Virus genome (UHGV): UHGV-0237462
Source of the DNA: a virus
DNA length: 30,991 nt
Reading direction: 5' to 3' (one strand)
The translations under genes and the position numbers were made by a program. Below the pieces are notes generated by a model. That model saw only the letters and a list, made by a program, of their open reading frames with translations, was not told the DNA's origin and did not search any database. Below, in pieces: positions 1 through 27,807 of the stretch. The first letter of the stretch is position 1; each line of letters starts with the position of its first letter.

Positions 1-40
1 GGAATTTCGGACGCGGGTTCAACTCCCGCCAGCTCCACCA
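1..40 (+). ncRNA. ssrA: 3' end of ssrA (tmRNA), partial; ends in CCA. Likely the phage attachment site region
   Basis: Sequence ggaatttcggacgcgggttcaactcccgccagctccacca matches my memory of the T-arm/acceptor 3' end of enterobacterial tmRNA; only the terminal 40 nt are in the window. Confidence 0.75.
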
Positions 41-20015: not shown

Positions 20016-21782
20016 ATGAACACCACACTGACACCCGCAGATCTCGATCCCCGTCGGCAAGCCATGCTGCTGTACTTTCAGGGATACCGCGTAGCCCGCA
20101 TTGCTGAAATGCTGGGCGAGAAAGTTGCAACCGTTCACAGCTGGAAAAAACGCGACAAGTGGGGTGACTATGGGCCGCTGGATCAGATGCAGCTCACCAC
20201 CGCCGCACGTTACTGCCAGCTCATTATGAAGGAGCACAAAGAAGGGAAAGATTTCAAAGAAATTGATCTGCTGGCGCGCCAGTCGGAGCGCCACGCGCGG
20301 ATCGGCAAGTTTAACAATGGCGGCAACGAAGCCGATTTAAACCCTAACGTCGCCAACCGCAACAAAGGCCCGCGCCGTCAGCCTGAAAAGAATGTTTTCA
20401 CCGATGAACAGATTGAGAAGCTGGAAGAAATCTTCCATTCCTCCATGTTCAACTACCAGCGTCACTGGTGGGAAGCCGGAAAAACCAACCGCATCCGCAA
20501 CCTGCTGAAGTCACGCCAGATCGGCGCAACCTTCTATTTTGCCCGTGAAGCCCTGATTGACGCCCTGCTAACCGGACGTAACCAGATTTTCCTTTCTGCC
20601 AGTAAGGCACAGGCGCACGTCTTTAAGCAGTACATCATCGACTTCGCCAAAGAAGTGGATGTGGAGCTGAAAGGCGATCCGATGGTGCTTCCCAACGGGG
20701 CCACACTGTATTTCCTCGGCACCAATGCCCGCACTGCCCAGAGTTACCACGGTAACCTGTATCTGGATGAATATTTCTGGATACCGAAATTCCAGGAGCT
20801 GCGCAAAGTGGCATCCGGTATGGCTATTCACAAAAAATGGCGACAAACCTATTTTTCCACGCCATCCAGCCTGACACACAGTGCTTATCCGTTCTGGTCC
20901 GGTGCGCTGTTCAACCGTGGGCGCAACAAAGCCGATAAGGTGGACATCGACCTGTCCCACAACAATCTGGCCCCCGGCCTGCTGTGCGCAGACGGGCAAT
21001 ACCGCCAGATAGTCACCGTGGAAGATGCGGTGCGCGGCGGATGTAACCTGTTCGATCTCGACCAGTTGCGCATGGAGTACAGCCCGGACGAATACCAGAA
21101 CCTGCTGATGTGCGAGTTCGTGGACGATCTCGCGTCCGTGTTCCCGCTCAGCGAACTGCAGGCGTGCATGGTGGACAGCTGGGAAGTCTGGACCGACTTT
21201 CATGCACTGGCCCTGCGCCCGTTTGGCTGGCGCGAAGTGTGGATCGGTTATGACCCGGCAAAAGGTACGCAGAACGGCGACAGTGCCGGATGCGTGGTGG
21301 TGGCTCCGCCAGCCGTGCCGGGTGGTAAGTTCCGCATTCTTGAGCGTCACCAGTGGCGCGGGATGGACTTCCGCGCCCAGGCTGACGCCATCAAAAAACT
21401 GACCGAACAGTATAACGTGACCTATATCGGTATCGACTCGACCGGCGTCGGTCACGGGGTTTACGAGAACGTGAAAGCGTTTTTTCCTGCCGTCAGGGAG
21501 TTTGTCTATAACCCCAACATTAAAAACGCCCTGGTACTCAAGGCCTACGACATTATCAGCCACCGCCGTCTGGAGTTTGACGCCGGGCACACCGACATTG
21601 CGCAGTCATTTATGGCAATCCGTCGCGCTACCACTGCCAGTGGCAACCGCCCGACCTATGAAGCCAGCCGCAGCGAAGAAGCCAGCCATGCCGATCTGGC
21701 CTGGGCAACAATGCACGCACTGTTTAACGAACCGCTGCAGGGCGAGTCCGCCAATACCAGCAATATTGTGGAGATTTTTTGA
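20016..21782 (+). CDS. P: Terminase large subunit (ATPase/nuclease) gpP
   Basis: 588 aa; P2 gpP-like; divergent from O. Confidence 0.9.
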   Translation: MNTTLTPADLDPRRQAMLLYFQGYRVARIAEMLGEKVATVHSWKKRDKWGDYGPLDQMQLTTAARYCQLIMKEHKEGKDFKEIDLLARQSERHARIGKFNNGGNEADLNPNVANRNKGPRRQPEKNVFTDEQIEKLEEIFHSSMFNYQRHWWEAGKTNRIRNLLKSRQIGATFYFAREALIDALLTGRNQIFLSASKAQAHVFKQYIIDFAKEVDVELKGDPMVLPNGATLYFLGTNARTAQSYHGNLYLDEYFWIPKFQELRKVASGMAIHKKWRQTYFSTPSSLTHSAYPFWSGALFNRGRNKADKVDIDLSHNNLAPGLLCADGQYRQIVTVEDAVRGGCNLFDLDQLRMEYSPDEYQNLLMCEFVDDLASVFPLSELQACMVDSWEVWTDFHALALRPFGWREVWIGYDPAKGTQNGDSAGCVVVAPPAVPGGKFRILERHQWRGMDFRAQADAIKKLTEQYNVTYIGIDSTGVGHGVYENVKAFFPAVREFVYNPNIKNALVLKAYDIISHRRLEFDAGHTDIAQSFMAIRRATTASGNRPTYEASRSEEASHADLAWATMHALFNEPLQGESANTSNIVEIF

Positions 21783-22816
21783 TGGGAAAGAGTAAGAAGA
21801 ACCGCGCTGCGTCGACGAAACAGATCCAGCATAAAGGCCAGACTTCAGCCGAAGCATTCAGCTTCGGTGATCCCGTTCCTGTTCTGGACCGCCGCGAACT
21901 GCTGGACTATGTGGAATGCGTACAGATGGATCGTTGGTATGAGCCGCCTGTGAGTTTCGACGGACTGGCGCGAACCTTCCGCGCCGCCGTGCATCACAGC
22001 TCACCGATTGCAGTGAAGTGCAACATTCTAACCAGCACCTACATCCCTCACCCGCTGCTCAGCCAGCAGGCTTTTTCGCGTTTTGTACAGGACTATCTGG
22101 TTTTTGGTAACGCCTACCTGGAGAAACGCACTAACCGCTTCGGTGAAGTTATCGCCCTTGAGCCTGCACTGGCAAAATACACCCGACGCGGGTTAGACCT
22201 GGATACCTACTGGTTTGTGCAATACGGCATGACTACGCAGCCGTATCAGTTCACGAAAGGCAACATTTTTCATCTGATGGAACCGGACATCAACCAGGAG
22301 ATCTACGGCCTGCCCGGTTATCTTTCTGCCATTCCGTCAGCTCTGCTCAACGAGTCCGCCACGCTGTTCCGCCGCAAGTATTACATTAACGGCAGTCATG
22401 CAGGCTTCATCATGTACATGACCGATGCAGCGCAGAACCAGGAGGATGTGAACAACCTCCGCAATGCGATGAAAAGCGCCAAAGGTCCTGGTAACTTCCG
22501 TAACCTGTTTATGTACTCGCCTAACGGTAAAAAGGACGGGCTTCAGATTATCCCGTTGTCAGAAGTGGCGGCGAAGGATGAGTTCCTGAATATCAAGAAC
22601 GTGAGCCGGGACGACATGATGGCGGCGCATCGTGTGCCGCCACAAATGATGGGGATAATGCCTAATAATGTCGGGGGGTTTGGGGATGTGGAGAAGGCCA
22701 GTCGCGTATTTGTACGTAATGAATTAACGCCCTTGCAAAAAAGGCTACAAGAGCTGAACGACTGGCTGGGCGAAGAAGTGATTAAATTTACGCCCTATAT
22801 TCTTTCAGAAGAATAA
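21782..22816 (+). CDS. Q: Portal protein gpQ
   Basis: ATG at 21782 overlapping the P stop (TGATG); 344 aa from this start. Confidence 0.9.
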   Translation: MGKSKKNRAASTKQIQHKGQTSAEAFSFGDPVPVLDRRELLDYVECVQMDRWYEPPVSFDGLARTFRAAVHHSSPIAVKCNILTSTYIPHPLLSQQAFSRFVQDYLVFGNAYLEKRTNRFGEVIALEPALAKYTRRGLDLDTYWFVQYGMTTQPYQFTKGNIFHLMEPDINQEIYGLPGYLSAIPSALLNESATLFRRKYYINGSHAGFIMYMTDAAQNQEDVNNLRNAMKSAKGPGNFRNLFMYSPNGKKDGLQIIPLSEVAAKDEFLNIKNVSRDDMMAAHRVPPQMMGIMPNNVGGFGDVEKASRVFVRNELTPLQKRLQELNDWLGEEVIKFTPYILSEE

Positions 22817-22824
22817 TTCCGAAC

Positions 22825-23523
22825 TTATTTGTTTCTTCTTTGTTCACGCCTTGTCTTGGCTTCGATAAGGCGTTGAGGTTCAGTGTAAAGCCGTTCTAAA
22901 AAAAGATAGGTAAAATCTTCAAGATCCTCAGCAGCAGCTTTATCCAAAATACCTTCATGCGCTCCATCATTTCCGTCATCTTTAACGCATTCAGCTAGTT
23001 CCCTTAAAGCTTCAGGCAGTAGATGATTATCAAATAACCACTCCATTCTTAACCCTAGGCTTCTCCTTATTTTTTGCGCAGGCCCTTGCTCCCCATCAGG
23101 AAGAAGTCCTTTTGTGGCATAATCAAGGCAAAGCCTAAACATGGTTGCTGCTGCATTATAACAACCTATAGCCAAACATTTCGCCCCTTCCTCATATGCA
23201 CTATTGATATGCTCAGGTAAGAACTCTGGTGGCTCCTCTACTGCTAAGTCTGCCGGTGATATAGGTCTAACAACCTCTGCAACTTCCTTTAAGCCGAATA
23301 TTCCACTTTCCCAATTATAGCCATCTAAAGTTTTATTTTTCGTTAAAGGTCTGCAAAGAAAAATTGTCGTTTTATGACACTCTCGGCAAACACAATAGAC
23401 CTCGTACTCGTATGTTTTACCCCCGCCCAATGCATTGTAAACCCTAGTGCAATTCAGCCCATTAACATCAAACGCTATTTTTTGTGATCCACATCGTGGA
23501 CAGTCATCCACTAACATAACCAT
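22825..23523 (-). CDS. Cargo protein: N-terminal zinc ribbon plus C-terminal helical domain resembling DUF4145 (possible HEPN-like effector), 232 aa
   Basis: ATG at 23523 with GGGAGGAG 8 nt upstream; CPRC ... CVCREC four-Cys ribbon; C-terminal half shows the pattern I associate with DUF4145 (..GNDGAHEG.. flanked by amphipathic helices); sits between cos and the 3' end of Q, converging on Q with an 8-bp gap. Confidence 0.65.
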   Translation of the reverse strand: MVMLVDDCPRCGSQKIAFDVNGLNCTRVYNALGGGKTYEYEVYCVCRECHKTTIFLCRPLTKNKTLDGYNWESGIFGLKEVAEVVRPISPADLAVEEPPEFLPEHINSAYEEGAKCLAIGCYNAAATMFRLCLDYATKGLLPDGEQGPAQKIRRSLGLRMEWLFDNHLLPEALRELAECVKDDGNDGAHEGILDKAAAEDLEDFTYLFLERLYTEPQRLIEAKTRREQRRNK

Positions 23524-23633
23524 GTCAATTACTCCTCCCTATGAAAAAAATGAGTTGAAAAATTGAATATTCACGACTTAAAAAGCTAGCCTATTTAACA
23601 CCATAATTTCATTAATTCAACCATGAGCGCGCG

Positions 23634-23652
23634 CTCGTATCCCCGCCACGCC
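23634..23652 (-). other. Probable cos site (19-nt cohesive end region)
   Basis: Minus-strand GGCGTGGCGGGGATACGAG followed by CGCGCGCTCATGG resembles my recollection of the P2 and 186 cohesive ends (GGCG.GGCGGGGA.. then .GCGCGCT.A.GG); location between A-side genes and Q is as expected. Confidence 0.5.
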
Positions 23653-23693
23653 TGCCCGCTTTATGTAGCGGTTTTCATGCGCCTGCATGACAT

Positions 23694-23721
23694 AAGCAAA
23701 AGCCCGCCACTCCTGGCGGGC
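23694..23721 (-). terminator. Rho-independent terminator ending the right-arm transcript just before cos
   Basis: Stem GCCCGCCA (23702-23709) / TGGCGGGC (23714-23721), loop CTCC; on the minus strand followed by TTTTGCTT. Confidence 0.6.
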
Positions 23722-23812
23722 CTCAGCTAAAACGATCCTCAAACGATCATGCGGATTCATGCGGCATAGACATGCACAATCTCCAAAGCGGGCATCGAGA
23801 CTTTTTGGAAAC

Positions 23813-24424
23813 CTACGTAACCACAGTTAATGTGTGCATCCTGTCTCGAATTGCATCACACGTCTCATCAAAAAGCTTGGTGATGGTTGTACGGTTCAAC
23901 TCCGCCTCTTTCCAATAATTTTGCCCGTCAAATTCTGGATCGCTATGCTTAAACGATATTGACTCTGAAAGGCATTCCTTCCGGAAACGGTCCAAGATTA
24001 TATAAACCTCTGGTGAGATGAACGGTTTGTTAGATTCAACACTTGTAACAAAAGTATTAAATGCATCAAAAAAAACTTTCAACCTTCTAAATTTTCTCTC
24101 TTCAAATGGTTCGTTGGGGTCAACATGATCCAGCGCAGGCCTCAGCTTAAGCACGCTTTCTCTGGTTTCAAACATCGAATTCCAAATGAGACTATATGCT
24201 GATAACTCCTTATCAAAATACGCTTTCGTTACATAAACAGAATTGTCTAACTTAGCCTTTATTCTTTCATTAGTTGCACTCAGTTGTGATTGAAATTCAG
24301 CAATATCTTTGTTTAGCCGCGACTTATATCTTTCTAAATAAACTTTCCCGATCCAAACAAATATGCTAGATGCAACAAAAGACACCCCACCCAACGAAGC
24401 CAGAACTTTAAAGACTAAATCCAT
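23813..24424 (-). CDS. AT-rich cargo protein, N-terminal TM anchor plus soluble helical domain, 203 aa
   Basis: ATG at 24424 with GGTGGGGG upstream; hydrophobic N-terminus (VLASLGGVSFVASSIFVWIG); own consensus -10 upstream and terminator downstream; visibly AT-rich. Confidence 0.65.
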   Translation of the reverse strand: MDLVFKVLASLGGVSFVASSIFVWIGKVYLERYKSRLNKDIAEFQSQLSATNERIKAKLDNSVYVTKAYFDKELSAYSLIWNSMFETRESVLKLRPALDHVDPNEPFEERKFRRLKVFFDAFNTFVTSVESNKPFISPEVYIILDRFRKECLSESISFKHSDPEFDGQNYWKEAELNRTTITKLFDETCDAIRDRMHTLTVVT

Positions 24425-24453
24425 TGCGCCCCCACCTGCAAAAATAGTATTCC

Positions 24454-24459
24454 ATTATA
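24454..24459 (-). promoter_or_regulatory. Consensus -10 hexamer TATAAT for the 203-aa cargo gene
   Basis: Minus strand TTGATT-15 bp-TATAAT about 30 nt upstream of the ATG; the spacer is shorter than optimal. Confidence 0.35.
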
Positions 24460-24472
24460 AGCTAATACATTT

Positions 24473-24733
24473 TTAATCAAACAGGGGATAATTCGCGTCA
24501 ACCTCATCACTTCTCTGCTCTACCCTAGTGACTTCCATCAAAAACCCCAGGCCGTCATATAGCGAAACGGGGAATTCCAGCTCAAGCCAGAAGCAGTCTT
24601 CATAGATGCGGCCCAACCAAAAACCTCCGCCACACTCCTTTGGGCGTTGAAAGAAGACCCAGTCGCCAAGGGTTAAACGTTCCAGCACCTGGCCCCGATA
24701 AATAATCTGGTGATTACTGTCTTTTTTACCCAT
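24473..24733 (-). CDS. Hypothetical protein (86 aa from the ATG at 24733)
   Basis: The ORF-track start is TTG; the internal ATG with GAGG 8 nt upstream is preferred; no recognisable motif. Confidence 0.5.
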   Translation of the reverse strand: MGKKDSNHQIIYRGQVLERLTLGDWVFFQRPKECGGGFWLGRIYEDCFWLELEFPVSLYDGLGFLMEVTRVEQRSDEVDANYPLFD

Positions 24734-24806: not shown

Positions 24807-25040
24807 TTAGTGCAGCCAGCTGTCGTCTTCCCAAACCTGTTGCATAATTTCCATCACCCGCTTTTTGTCTTCATCAAGCTTTAAGCCACTCAGCTCAACG
24901 CCGTTTGCCGACCCTTTACGGATGCGGATAGCGGTCTTGGGATAGATGGGTTGCAGGTTGCGGTAAAGCTCGGACTCCAGAGCGTCTAAGGTAGACTGGC
25001 TAATCTTCTGCTCTTTATCGATCATTATTTCAATGCGCAT
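24807..25040 (-). CDS. DinI-family protein (77 aa); likely the C-terminal module of a Tum-like SOS antirepressor
   Basis: MRIEIMIDKEQKISQSTLDALESELYRNLQ...WEDDSW aligns along its length with E. coli DinI as I recall it. Confidence 0.7.
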   Translation of the reverse strand: MRIEIMIDKEQKISQSTLDALESELYRNLQPIYPKTAIRIRKGSANGVELSGLKLDEDKKRVMEIMQQVWEDDSWLH

Positions 25041-25050
25041 AAAAGTCACC

Positions 25051-25239
25051 TCAGCTGATGACATCCATTGAGCGGTTGTATTCGTGGCTTCTGATTTTTG
25101 CCATGAGTTCATCAGTCAATTCAGAAACCCACTGCAGGGCCAGCCCCTTCTCTTCATCACTACACTCACTAGCCGCTACAAGCTTAAGAAAAAAATCAAT
25201 GCGCTGGAGCTTCAAAGACTCCAAAAAATAGTCCTGCAT
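25051..25239 (-). CDS. Small protein (62 aa) immediately downstream of the LexA box; possible N-terminal part of a split Tum-like antirepressor
   Basis: ATG at 25239 with GGAGG 4 nt upstream; the stop lies 11 nt before the DinI-like start. Confidence 0.5.
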   Translation of the reverse strand: MQDYFLESLKLQRIDFFLKLVAASECSDEEKGLALQWVSELTDELMAKIRSHEYNRSMDVIS

Positions 25240-25280: not shown

Positions 25281-25300
25281 CACTGTTTATATTTACAGTA
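25281..25300. promoter_or_regulatory. LexA (SOS) box
   Basis: CACTGTTTATATTTACAGTA contains CTGT-N8-ACAG with an AT-rich spacer; centred about 51 bp upstream of the 62-aa ORF. Confidence 0.65.
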
Positions 25301-25392: not shown

Positions 25393-27807
25393 TTAATACA
25401 GGTTCCGCCACTTATCATCTTCCTGCAAACGCTGGTTCCGATAGAAGACACGCAGGCCTGCTCCTGACGGAATACTGCCGCCGCGAAGGAGTAAATCGAC
25501 CTCTTTCTCGCTGCCATCAAATCCTCTGGACTTCAGTTCATAGACGAGCTGCTGTCGTTGATGGTCTGTAATTCGCTGTTTGTAGTCTCTACGCCGTTTC
25601 GGTTTCACCAGGCGTAACCTTGCAGCCAGTTCCCGGCGCTCTTTTTTGTTCATACTGTGCAGGTAATCGTGCAACTCCTTGTCATCCATGTGGGTAATGT
25701 CCGTTCTGGTATCCCCATCAGCTGATTTGTCTTTCCCTTGTTGGTTCAAATTTTCAGCAAGGGGACAGTTATTGCCACGAGTCCAAGGGGCGCAAGCGCC
25801 CTGGTCGGCAGCCGCCTCCTGAACGTCAACGGCCTTACGAACCATTTTCCACTTCACTGCATGAGTGCAGATCTTGCCCTCTGCAATGGGTGACCAGATG
25901 CCATAAATACGAATACCGTGATCGCCATAGGCGGTTGGCTCTTCGTTGATTTCATAAGCGGTTCTGATGAGGTGATATTTGCGGGGAACCAGTACGCCGC
26001 CCTGCTTCATGATGTAGGTGGCAAAACAACCAGCATCAGCAGCAGCCAGGATGGCATCAAGGCGCGGGTTATCCAGTACCGGCGCACCTGCTTTTTTGTC
26101 ACCCTGTTGCCTTGCCGCCTGACCAGCCAGCAATCGCAGTTCACGGTAAGCCTGACGCCCCGGAATGCCAAAGAAGCGGAATTGCTGAACACGATGCAGA
26201 GACGCCCAGGCATTAACGTATTCAGCGTTATCACGCAGGGATTTACCCGTTTCCTTACTGATCTCGCCAGCCAGACCACGCCCGTCAATATTCTTACTGA
26301 TATATTTCGCAATGTAGCTTGTCGGCGTTCCTTTGCGCGGGTTTATCAGCTCAGACTTAAAGCGTGGCCCCGTGTTATTGCCCAGCTCCTCGCGGTCTTC
26401 TCGGATGGCAAACTTACGCAACAATGCAGTAATGGCGCGGCGGTCTTTTTTGCGCATGAAACACAACAGGTGCCAGTGAACTGTGCCGTCATGATGCGGC
26501 TCAGCCACCCGCACGCCATACCAGCGCAACCCGGCTTTGTGCATAGCCTTACGAAATGCAGCAAACATGCCGACCAGATAATCGCTGCTTTGTCTTACTG
26601 TCGCGTTGGTCCAGGTCGGGTTTGGCCTGCCGTTATTTAGCGTGGAATGGAAACGTGACGGACAGGTGATGGTGTAGAAAACGGCGCAGTCACCACGCAT
26701 TTCCGCGATAAGCTCCAGGCCTTTAACACAGGCCATCATCTCGTTGCGGCGATGCGCCGGGTTGCTGCTGCTGGCGTTTACCACATCCTCCATGTTCAGC
26801 GTGTCGCCGTCTTCGTTCACCAGTTCATGAGAACGGAAAAACTCCAGCGACTTACGGCGCTGCTCACGTTTATGCATCACGGCTTCATAGCTGACATAGG
26901 GAGATGCTTTTTTGCTGACAAGGCAGACAGCACGCAACTGCTCTTCCCGCCATTCGCAACGCATCTTCCATAATTTCCGATACCACCAGTCGGCGCACAG
27001 CATACGCGCCAGCGAACCCGGAATGAGTTCATAAGGCACAGGTTTGCGGCGGTTTCTTTTCCGGCGGAGTTGCTCAAACGCAGGCGGTATGACATCCAGT
27101 CGCAGGGTTTCTGCAGCCACCTTTTCCCATGTCTTGCGGATTTCTTCTGGCTTAACATCATCGGAGGCGTACAAATCACCACAAGCGGCATCAAGACACA
27201 TGCTCATATGCGCAGCGACAAGGGTAGACAGGCGTTTCACCTGATCCTGACTCATTTCAGGCAGGATCAGCAGACCGTCCAGCCCTTCATGGCTTGCCAT
27301 AAAACGAAAAGATGCAGATAGCTGGCTGTCGCGTATATGCTCCAGTCGTTCCAGACATGGCTTAATCGTCTCACGCAAATAGCGGGAATAAGCCTTTGGC
27401 CTGCCCAGGCTGCTGAAATATTCAATACGTTGCATCAGCGGCTTGCTGATATGGGAAGGCTGGGCGTTGACGTCAGCCAGAATGACCATGTCTGGATTAA
27501 AACGCTGCTGCTCATGCGCCATCTTTGCCCGGCTAATGAGCTTATCCTGCTCCATTTCGCGTTGGACAGGATCACGGGATTCATTAAAGAAATAACGCTC
27601 CCAGACCTGATCACTCAGTGCCTCGCGGCGCAGTTGTTCCTGCTCGTTATCGGTAGCGTACAGAGTGATCAGGTTTGAAAGCGCAGAAACCGGCGCAACT
27701 TCCGCCGGGTCCAGATAAGGGTTAATGGCCTTTTTCGGGCTGTTCCATGAGAATGCTGCGGCGACCTTGTTAAAGCCGCTGCAGTTGTTCATATCAGCAT
27801 GGCTCAT
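25393..27807 (-). CDS. A: Replication initiation endonuclease gpA (rolling-circle)
   Basis: 804 aa; P2/186 A-like size and position; start overlaps the Dam stop (ATGA). Confidence 0.9.

Follow-up and report, generated by a model that had tools for sequence, protein, structure and literature searches.

What does a short, AT-rich gene at the cos site of a P2-like prophage do for the phage or for its host? The DNA analysed here (the window, all 30,991 nucleotides of UHGV virus genome UHGV-0237462) is a P2/186-like (Peduoviridae) prophage integrated at ssrA. The 3' end of tmRNA at positions 1-40 adjoins the prophage and was the sole match of an Rfam search of the whole window; the cargo unit and its surroundings gave none. 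The cargo region is 98% identical to Escherichia phage Cartapus, the prophage of strain LF82, and a prophage of E. coli N96 showed 99.9-100% identity over the queried stretches of 1341 and 612 bases. The gene in question, an ORF of 203 codons that runs from ATG to TAG, encodes a protein identical to WP_000366632.1 of E. coli N96, an accession for which we found no mention in the literature. A sequence-only reading had described it as an independent, AT-rich transcription unit with a consensus -10 and its own terminator, inserted where P2 carries old/tin and encoding a membrane-anchored protein. The analysis presented below identifies the gene as an accessory one (a 'moron') that stands alone, is horizontally mobile and occupies the gpA-side slot of the cos-proximal hotspot. 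As to its function, our best reading, to which we assign a probability of roughly one half, is that of a single-gene, membrane-anchored anti-phage protein that would protect the lysogen.

Table 1 Features of the cos region and of the adjoining genes. Positions are those of the window.
Feature	Position	Strand	Remark
Terminase	20016-21782		local gene order read on + strand
Portal gpQ	21782-22816		
232-aa zinc-ribbon/DUF4145 gene	22825-23523	minus	AT-rich cargo, portal side of cos
Conserved cos block	23626-23777	.	right edge is the cos-side limit of the cargo
cos core GGCGTGGCGGGGA	23640-23652	minus	
Terminator-like hairpin, then TTTTGCTT	23694-23727	minus	RNAfold; belongs to the conserved cos flank
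203-aa CDS	23813-24424	minus	ORF list, orthologue match, AlphaFold, dN/dS
Shine-Dalgarno-like AGGTGGGGG	24429-24437	minus	read from sequence
-10 hexamer TATAAT	24454-24459	minus	29 nt 5' of ATG
86-aa ORF, phrog_2100 (no annotated function)	24473-24733	minus	upstream of the 203-aa gene
Weak -35-like TTGATT	24475-24480	minus	spacer of 15 nt; shares bases with the 86-aa ORF stop codon
DinI	24807-25040	minus	
62-aa ORF	25051-25239	minus	
Perfect LexA box	25283-25298		
gpA	25393-27807	minus	

The 203-aa gene adjoins cos, in the interval bounded by gpA, the replication gene, and gpQ, which encodes the portal (Table 1). This interval is the old/tin locus of P2, as had been supposed from the sequence, and a hotspot of anti-phage systems (Rousset et al. 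2022, Cell Host Microbe; PMC9122126). The role of the hotspot as a reservoir has been validated experimentally (PMC9122126; PMC13586616) and is also covered by a 2024 preprint; its cargo was shown to act in phage-phage competition (PMC9122126). About a quarter of the P2-like hotspot loci contain non-defence cargo, for example partition systems, and ≈2% contain toxins (PMC9122126); location alone is thus no proof of defence. With few substitutions the protein corresponds to system #39 in Table S5B of Rousset et al. (no Pfam domain, '1 TM', 103 occurrences), and its DUF4145 neighbour on the other side of cos corresponds to system #29 (a 'putative nuclease', 125 occurrences). Within the supplementary files of that study the 203-aa sequence is present in Table S5 only and absent from Table S2, which contains the cloned systems (PMC9122126). 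The protein has therefore been catalogued and was not among the systems cloned by these authors.

The base composition of the gene departs from that of the phage backbone, in agreement with its visibly AT-rich appearance. Its G+C content is 38.4% with a GC3 of 38%, compared to 52-56% and 50-68%, respectively, for the backbone genes (tail, capsid, terminase, portal, gpA), and its codon adaptation to the backbone amounts to 0.54, in comparison to 0.66-0.84 for the backbone genes themselves. A dN/dS ratio of 0.11-0.12 relative to Enterobacter orthologues (dS ≈0.8) indicates that the ORF is a real gene.

Comparison of the locus across P2-like prophages showed that the slot is variable. Of 5426 complete E. 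coli genomes, 1275 contain a 152-bp block that flanks cos. Most of these do not have the 203-aa gene, which was found in only 52 (≈4% of the P2-like prophages); in strain GPEC1201 its slot is filled by a 433-aa gene. The cargo on the other side of cos varies as well: there is an AIPR protein (PDC-S05) in E. coli FDN-11 and in an Enterobacter phage, a retron reverse transcriptase with its effector in E. coli H1 and in Enterobacter, and a 223-aa protein without assigned function in another host. In 11 genomes this position is taken by DprA + PRTase, a pair validated as a defence system by Rousset et al. (PMC9122126); the locus is here a decayed remnant, in which the 203-aa gene itself is broken. 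An intact copy of the 203-aa gene is located beside smpB in E. cloacae, where the phage is gone and only a fragment of the cos flank is left. Independent mobilisation into E. cloacae was considered and rejected, because the cos-flank part and the location at smpB identify this site as a decayed P2-like prophage. The intact copy in such a remnant points to retention by selection after decay of the phage.

The variability of the slot also bears on the terminator that the sequence-only reading had attributed to the gene. A strong hairpin, GCCCGCCA-GGAG-TGGCGGGC, followed by the T-run TTTTGCTT, is indeed present before cos and has a calculated free energy of -25.1 kcal/mol (RNAfold). However, it is part of the cos-flank block, which shows 83-97% conservation across 43 phage records and the 1275 E. 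coli genomes and is common to phages that do not have the gene, and it is thus not the gene's own terminator. Judged from this conservation, the hairpin is a backbone feature of the P2-like cos flank that any cargo in the slot would use. The cos-side boundary of the cargo lies at ≈23778.

The promoter assignment likewise stood in part. The -10 hexamer TATAAT is perfect, but a consensus promoter it is not: the best -35 element, TTGATT, is poor and separated by a spacer of 15 nt, and a scan for sigma-70 consensus promoters that required a spacer of 16-18 nt found no complete promoter. The hexamer alone is weak evidence, since the window holds 12 copies of TATAAT against 7.2 expected. Both elements are kept in orthologous loci with proteins of 75-83% identity, among them Enterobacter loci at 83% protein identity; TTGATT is invariant in both alignments of these loci, and the -10 of the E. 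cloacae locus reads TATACT.

Transcription of the gene in a lysogen can be taken from published data. Misson et al. 2023, PLoS Pathog (PMC9928086, S1 Table) re-analysed RNA-seq data of LF82 (GSE154648), the prophage of which is 97-98% identical and harbours the orthologue; the expression data are thus those of LF82 and not of the strain of the window. The orthologous coordinates correspond exactly to LF82_789 (CARTA_47), a 'hypothetical protein' and one of two 'morons' of Cartapus, called as such at 7-fold above the local background (PMC9928086). Expression is given as log2(fpkm+5), with condition labels that are our reading of the column codes and of the table legend, and with the strand of the reads not established: CARTA_47 reached 5.4/5.6 in LB, 7.1/7.3 and 8.6/8.5 after 1 h and 6 h in DMEM, and 9.0 and 10.5 after 1 h and 6 h in macrophages (PMC9928086), a rise of ≈30-fold inside macrophages. 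The gpA gene remained at 2.4-2.9 in all conditions, and the upstream 86-aa ORF (CARTA_46) was at ≈3 in LB and in DMEM at 1 h and 6 h and reached 7.5-7.7 in macrophages at 6 h (PMC9928086). The reads of the 203-aa orthologue are 4- to 60-fold above those of this upstream ORF. That the gene is transcribed in the lysogen when gpA is at background, as is the upstream ORF in LB and DMEM, suggests that it has its own promoter and that this promoter is active in the lysogen; the idea of an independent transcription unit has thereby gained support from the Cartapus orthologue. We infer from the same LF82 data that the TATAAT region has promoter activity. The 62-aa ORF, the DinI gene and the 86-aa ORF rise in macrophages only, which fits the perfect LexA box at 25283-25298. 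An induction pattern like that of CARTA_47 was found for the DUF4145 gene and for other AT-rich morons.

The architecture of the protein is as had been read from the translation, one N-terminal transmembrane helix followed by a soluble helical domain without known motif, and structure prediction has now given this domain a shape. The best 19-residue transmembrane window starts at residue 7 (Kyte-Doolittle value 1.98), and the helix spans residues ≈7-25. An AlphaFold model based on an alignment of 101 sequences (pLDDT 93.9, pTM 0.73) shows a single helix that passes through the membrane and continues as a stalk to residue 60, and a four-helix bundle of residues 67-198 (helices 67-92, 107-131, 138-160 and 167-198) that is closed by a two-stranded sheet, with strand 63-65 paired to strand 199-201. 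The hydrophobic N-terminal stretch is found in 123 of 135 full-length representatives of the family, 121 of which have exactly one such stretch. It is preceded by an acidic tail with a median length of 8 residues, and in 95% of 217 members there are more lysine and arginine residues after the transmembrane helix than before it. By the positive-inside rule, the N-terminus is predicted to be outside and the C-terminus inside, with the bundle in the cytoplasm; ≈6 residues would be exposed outside and nearly all of the protein would be cytoplasmic. An indel of exactly 11 residues in the stalk of relatives is compatible with a coiled coil in which the phase is preserved. The transmembrane helix is rich in glycine (family consensus L..GG.......L...LGK.W). 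Residues F70, E73, W81, L94, R95, P96, P134, F135, E154, I192, R193 and R195 are invariant or nearly so, and no catalytic motif is evident among the family-conserved residues. By their place in the secondary structure of the model, these residues cluster at both ends of the bundle, which suggests salt bridges with a structural role more than it does a catalytic site. Taken as a whole, the protein is probably a membrane-tethered oligomer.

Database searches give the protein hardly any name and at the same time a large number of relatives. Its full length matches phrog_26391 (no annotated function) in PHROGs. Neither the protein nor 101 of its relatives had an above-threshold match in Pfam, PADLOC-DB v2, NCBIfam or the sequences of the PDB; PADLOC-DB v2 returned no family for the protein and scattered single weak matches among the relatives, and Pfam returned sub-threshold coiled-coil matches only. 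The RefSeq name 'valyl-tRNA synthetase', used in some genomes, was rejected: the match to Val_tRNA-synt_C scores 16.7 bits, which is below the cut-off of 25.9, and covers a coiled-coil stretch of 38 residues. A word-indexed search found enterobacterial relatives only. The exhaustive profile search yielded 915 representatives (clusters of 50% identity) at E <= 1e-3, of which 381 had E <= 1e-10; nearly all are 190-230 aa long and match over the full length. Where their sources give a name, it is 'hypothetical'; Dyella, Nitrospira, Kuenenia and Corallococcus are among the hosts, which extend over Enterobacteriaceae, anammox bacteria and myxobacteria. A tblastn search added homologues in Pseudomonas phage Riah and Clostridium phage Maintenon. 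A pattern search of genome contigs for related loci produced 38 matches, none of which was confirmed.

We inspected ≈15 neighbourhoods of relatives and found no partner gene conserved beside them; recurrent neighbours of the distant relatives are genes of mobile elements and of defence. One relative is situated directly downstream of a PDC-S51/DUF3800 gene, with which it has the boundary base in common, and a resolvase, RhuM and PycTM are nearby. Another is located beside a methyltransferase-Mrr fusion and PDC-S47/Abi_alpha. A third belongs to a prophage of the myxobacterium Corallococcus, together with RusA and a P4-cII-like gene, and a fourth adjoins a large serine recombinase with which a mobile element ends, an element that also carries a polyvalent protein; transposases occur near some relatives. 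In Pseudomonas phage Riah a single ORF separates the homologue from the gene of the cI repressor, at a distance of 1.7 kb, and in Clostridium phage Maintenon it is located between the genes of the terminase subunits. Several of the distant contexts were uninformative.

How does the gene compare with known systems? It resembles the hotspot cargo of Rousset et al. (PMC9122126) in locus, in backbone and in being an AT-rich, variable single-gene cassette at cos, and it differs from old, tin, DUF4238, the three-gene system and DprA-PRTase in that it was not cloned there and has no domain assigned. It shows two traits of a moron, a deviant base composition and, in the Cartapus orthologue, transcription apart from the flanking phage operons; CARTA_47 is one of the lysogen-transcribed morons of Misson et al. 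2023 (PMC9928086), a study that gives expression only. From the membrane effectors of abortive infection (Csx28 of type VI-B CRISPR, RexB, the transmembrane effectors of CBASS, Pycsar and retrons, and Gop of P4) it is set apart by the lack of a conserved adjacent sensor, and the structural match to them does not go beyond the level of any four-helix bundle. The Rx4-6H motif of HEPN-type, Csx28-like proteins is absent from the family, which instead has the consensus IRxRI with R193 and R195 and no conserved histidine. Pairwise and profile comparison gave no kinship with the one-transmembrane partner of the P4 RT-nitrilase system. The four-helix sensor domains of Tar/Tsr, TorS and Adeh_2942 are periplasmic, have a transmembrane helix on either side and drive a signalling module in the cytoplasm, whereas the 203-aa protein has one transmembrane helix, a bundle predicted to be cytoplasmic and nothing after it. 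Its identity to sensor domains of chemoreceptors and histidine kinases is 3-8%. A sensor domain of the 4HB_MCP type was rejected on the basis of the single transmembrane helix, the cytoplasmic location of the bundle according to the positive-inside rule and the lack of a Pfam 4HB match.

We propose that the gene protects the lysogen as follows. It is expressed from the repressed prophage, probably by a promoter of its own, and its product would be a bitopic inner-membrane protein with a short acidic N-terminus in the periplasm and a coiled-coil-like stalk and four-helix bundle in the cytoplasm, presumably assembled into an oligomer on the cytoplasmic side of the membrane. A cue of infection might be sensed by the bundle, upon which the assembly of transmembrane helices and stalks would compromise the membrane and lead to abortive infection. 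In a less likely version, genome entry would be blocked at the inner membrane; with almost the whole polypeptide predicted on the cytoplasmic side, we prefer the abortive mechanism. An abortive, membrane-directed mechanism in particular is nevertheless a tentative proposal. The hotspot, the variability of the slot, the foreign base composition, the expression in the lysogen, the defence genes across cos and next to relatives, the retention in a phage remnant and the architecture all count in favour of an anti-phage function. The missing match in PADLOC-DB v2, Pfam, NCBIfam and the PDB sequences, the uninformative distant contexts and the ≈30-fold rise in macrophages count against it, and this rise could equally point to a role in host adaptation.

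Protection of the lysogen might also be achieved without killing. In a non-abortive superinfection exclusion, the protein would act at the inner membrane to hinder the genome delivery of incoming phages, much as P22 SieA, T4 Imm or HK97 gp15 do; the one trait shown to link it to them is that of an inner-membrane protein expressed from a prophage. Small size and constitutive expression would suit such a function, as would the action of hotspot cargo in competition between phages (PMC9122126). However, a protein with ≈6 residues outside and the rest predicted to be in the cytoplasm has an odd geometry for meeting the injection apparatus, and it has no similarity to an annotated Sie family in PHROGs, so that we regard exclusion as unlikely. 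The main alternative leaves phages aside and assumes a host-fitness moron, an envelope or stress factor that is useful in the gut or in macrophages. The stepwise increase of the transcript (5.5 in LB, 8.6 in DMEM and 10.5 in macrophages at 6 h, as log2(fpkm+5)) argues for it, as does the host LF82, an adherent-invasive E. coli, and virulence cargo such as cytolethal distending toxin is found in P2-like hotspots (PMC9122126). But the similar induction of the DUF4145 gene and of other AT-rich morons fits a general de-repression of AT-rich DNA better than a dedicated role, the hosts of the family are mostly environmental (Nitrospira, Kuenenia, Corallococcus) and also include the hosts of Clostridium and Pseudomonas phages, and the neighbours are defence genes and not virulence genes. 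We therefore consider a host-fitness function quite unlikely.

A function in the life cycle of the phage itself, for example in tethering replication or packaging to the membrane near cos or in timing lysis, is suggested by the position of the gene at cos on the gpA side and by the Clostridium phage homologue between the terminase genes. Such a function is highly improbable for a gene that only ≈4% of the P2-like prophages of this backbone possess, that is expressed at a time when the lytic genes are not and that is kept in remnants without phage genes; moreover, the lysis cassette is located elsewhere. The last alternative makes the 203-aa protein the toxin of a two-gene module; its counterpart would be either an antitoxin encoded by the 86-aa ORF or the DUF4145 protein from across cos. 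Independent assortment has largely refuted this alternative. Only 48 nt separate the gene from the 86-aa ORF, but in the Enterobacter loci this ORF is a pseudogene, and in E. coli H1 and FDN-11 it is either truncated or lacks an annotation; the 203-aa gene is intact in all of them, which excludes a toxin-antitoxin pairing. Homologues of the 86-aa ORF are widespread in P22-like, SSU5-like and other P2-like phages that do not have the 203-aa gene; according to its sequence distribution the ORF is a separate small phage gene and no partner. The DUF4145 neighbour (Pfam DUF4145, E 4.5e-7; PADLOC PD-T7-4, E 9e-7) often co-occurs with the gene in E. coli. However, it is present in just 25 of 41 intact 203-aa loci, and 18 of 43 DUF4145 loci do not have the 203-aa gene. 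The two genes thus assort independently and an obligate pair across cos was rejected.

Some of the ground was known before: the type of locus as a P2 hotspot, the table entry of the gene, its designation as a moron and its transcription. The protein belongs to a large, unnamed and confidently modelled family that is found repeatedly beside known defence genes. The protein may tentatively be viewed as the founding member of a widespread family of minimal single-protein anti-phage systems, in which transmembrane helix, stalk and bundle would combine sensing with membrane-directed killing or exclusion in ≈200 residues. Note that the host of the orthologue, LF82, is a Crohn's-disease-associated strain and that the transcript rises in it when the bacterium is inside macrophages. 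If the protein does turn out to act as a defence system by itself, the catalogue of such systems would gain a very compact, membrane-anchored type, and ≈900 clusters of proteins, some of which are now mislabelled as 'valyl-tRNA synthetase', could be given a name.

The ≈120 nt upstream of the -10 element of the 203-aa gene retain 75-80% identity even in the E. cloacae locus L022, a prophage remnant with an intact homologue; in the same comparison the synonymous sites of the gene are saturated (pS 0.76). At the E. cloacae locus no ORF covers this stretch. It contains three TTGA(T/C) motifs that are spaced by 44 and 22 nt, and it may represent a regulatory region.

The 86-aa ORF has homologues in P22-like phages, in SSU5-like phage-plasmids and in other P2-like phages, and among loci that retain the 203-aa gene, pseudogenes and shortened forms of this ORF recur. 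It is the last of three minus-strand ORFs behind a perfect LexA box. Published RNA-seq data of the LF82 prophage Cartapus show that all three are up only inside macrophages, with gpA silent throughout (PMC9928086). The LexA box together with this macrophage-only rise in the presence of a silent gpA suggests an SOS-controlled mini-operon, which we liken to the Tum region of 186/Fels-2.

Features in the window and in related loci
Feature	Position	Strand	Remark
tmRNA 3' end	1-40	+	at window edge
232-aa zinc-ribbon/DUF4145 protein gene	22825-23523	-	second AT-rich cargo gene, portal side of cos
Small hairpin CCGCTTTATGTAGCGG then TTTTCATG	23656-23671	+	directly beside cos core
Conserved upstream stretch of 203-aa gene	24460-24600; L022 4850-4990	- (window)
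86-aa ORF	24473-24733	-	phrog_2100, function unknown
DinI	24807-25040	-
62-aa ORF	25051-25239	-
LexA box CTGTTTATATTTACAG	25283-25298	+	upstream of three minus-strand ORFs
P0233 + DUF3800 gene pair	L003-L006, 6850-8684		metagenomic contigs

The small hairpin at cos is oriented opposite to the large, terminator-like hairpin in the conserved cos flank, and the two together would keep transcription from both sides off cos. The DUF4145 gene (41.5% G+C) assorts independently of the 203-aa gene. The 232-aa product shows a partial match (E 9e-7) to PD-T7-4, a single-gene system in PADLOC, and is listed as #29, 'putative nuclease', in Table S5B of Rousset (PMC9122126); a transcript is also present in the LF82 lysogen (PMC9928086). 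The tmRNA match (Rfam RF00023, 50.3 bits) at the window edge indicates that ssrA is the integration site of the prophage. smpB also adjoins the E. cloacae remnant.

In ≈15 complete E. coli genomes (e.g. NZ_CP025862.1, NZ_AGTD01000001.1) RefSeq names the 203-aa orthologue 'valyl-tRNA synthetase'. This is a misannotation, the sole basis of which is a coiled-coil match to Val_tRNA-synt_C of 16.7 bits, below the cut-off of 25.9.

The gene of P0233, a distant homologue of the 203-aa protein, has one boundary base in common with the gene of a 383-aa DUF3800 protein, a full-length match to the PADLOC candidate PDC-S51 (E 8e-112), and a resolvase gene follows next. This pair may constitute a two-gene variant of the candidate 203-aa system.
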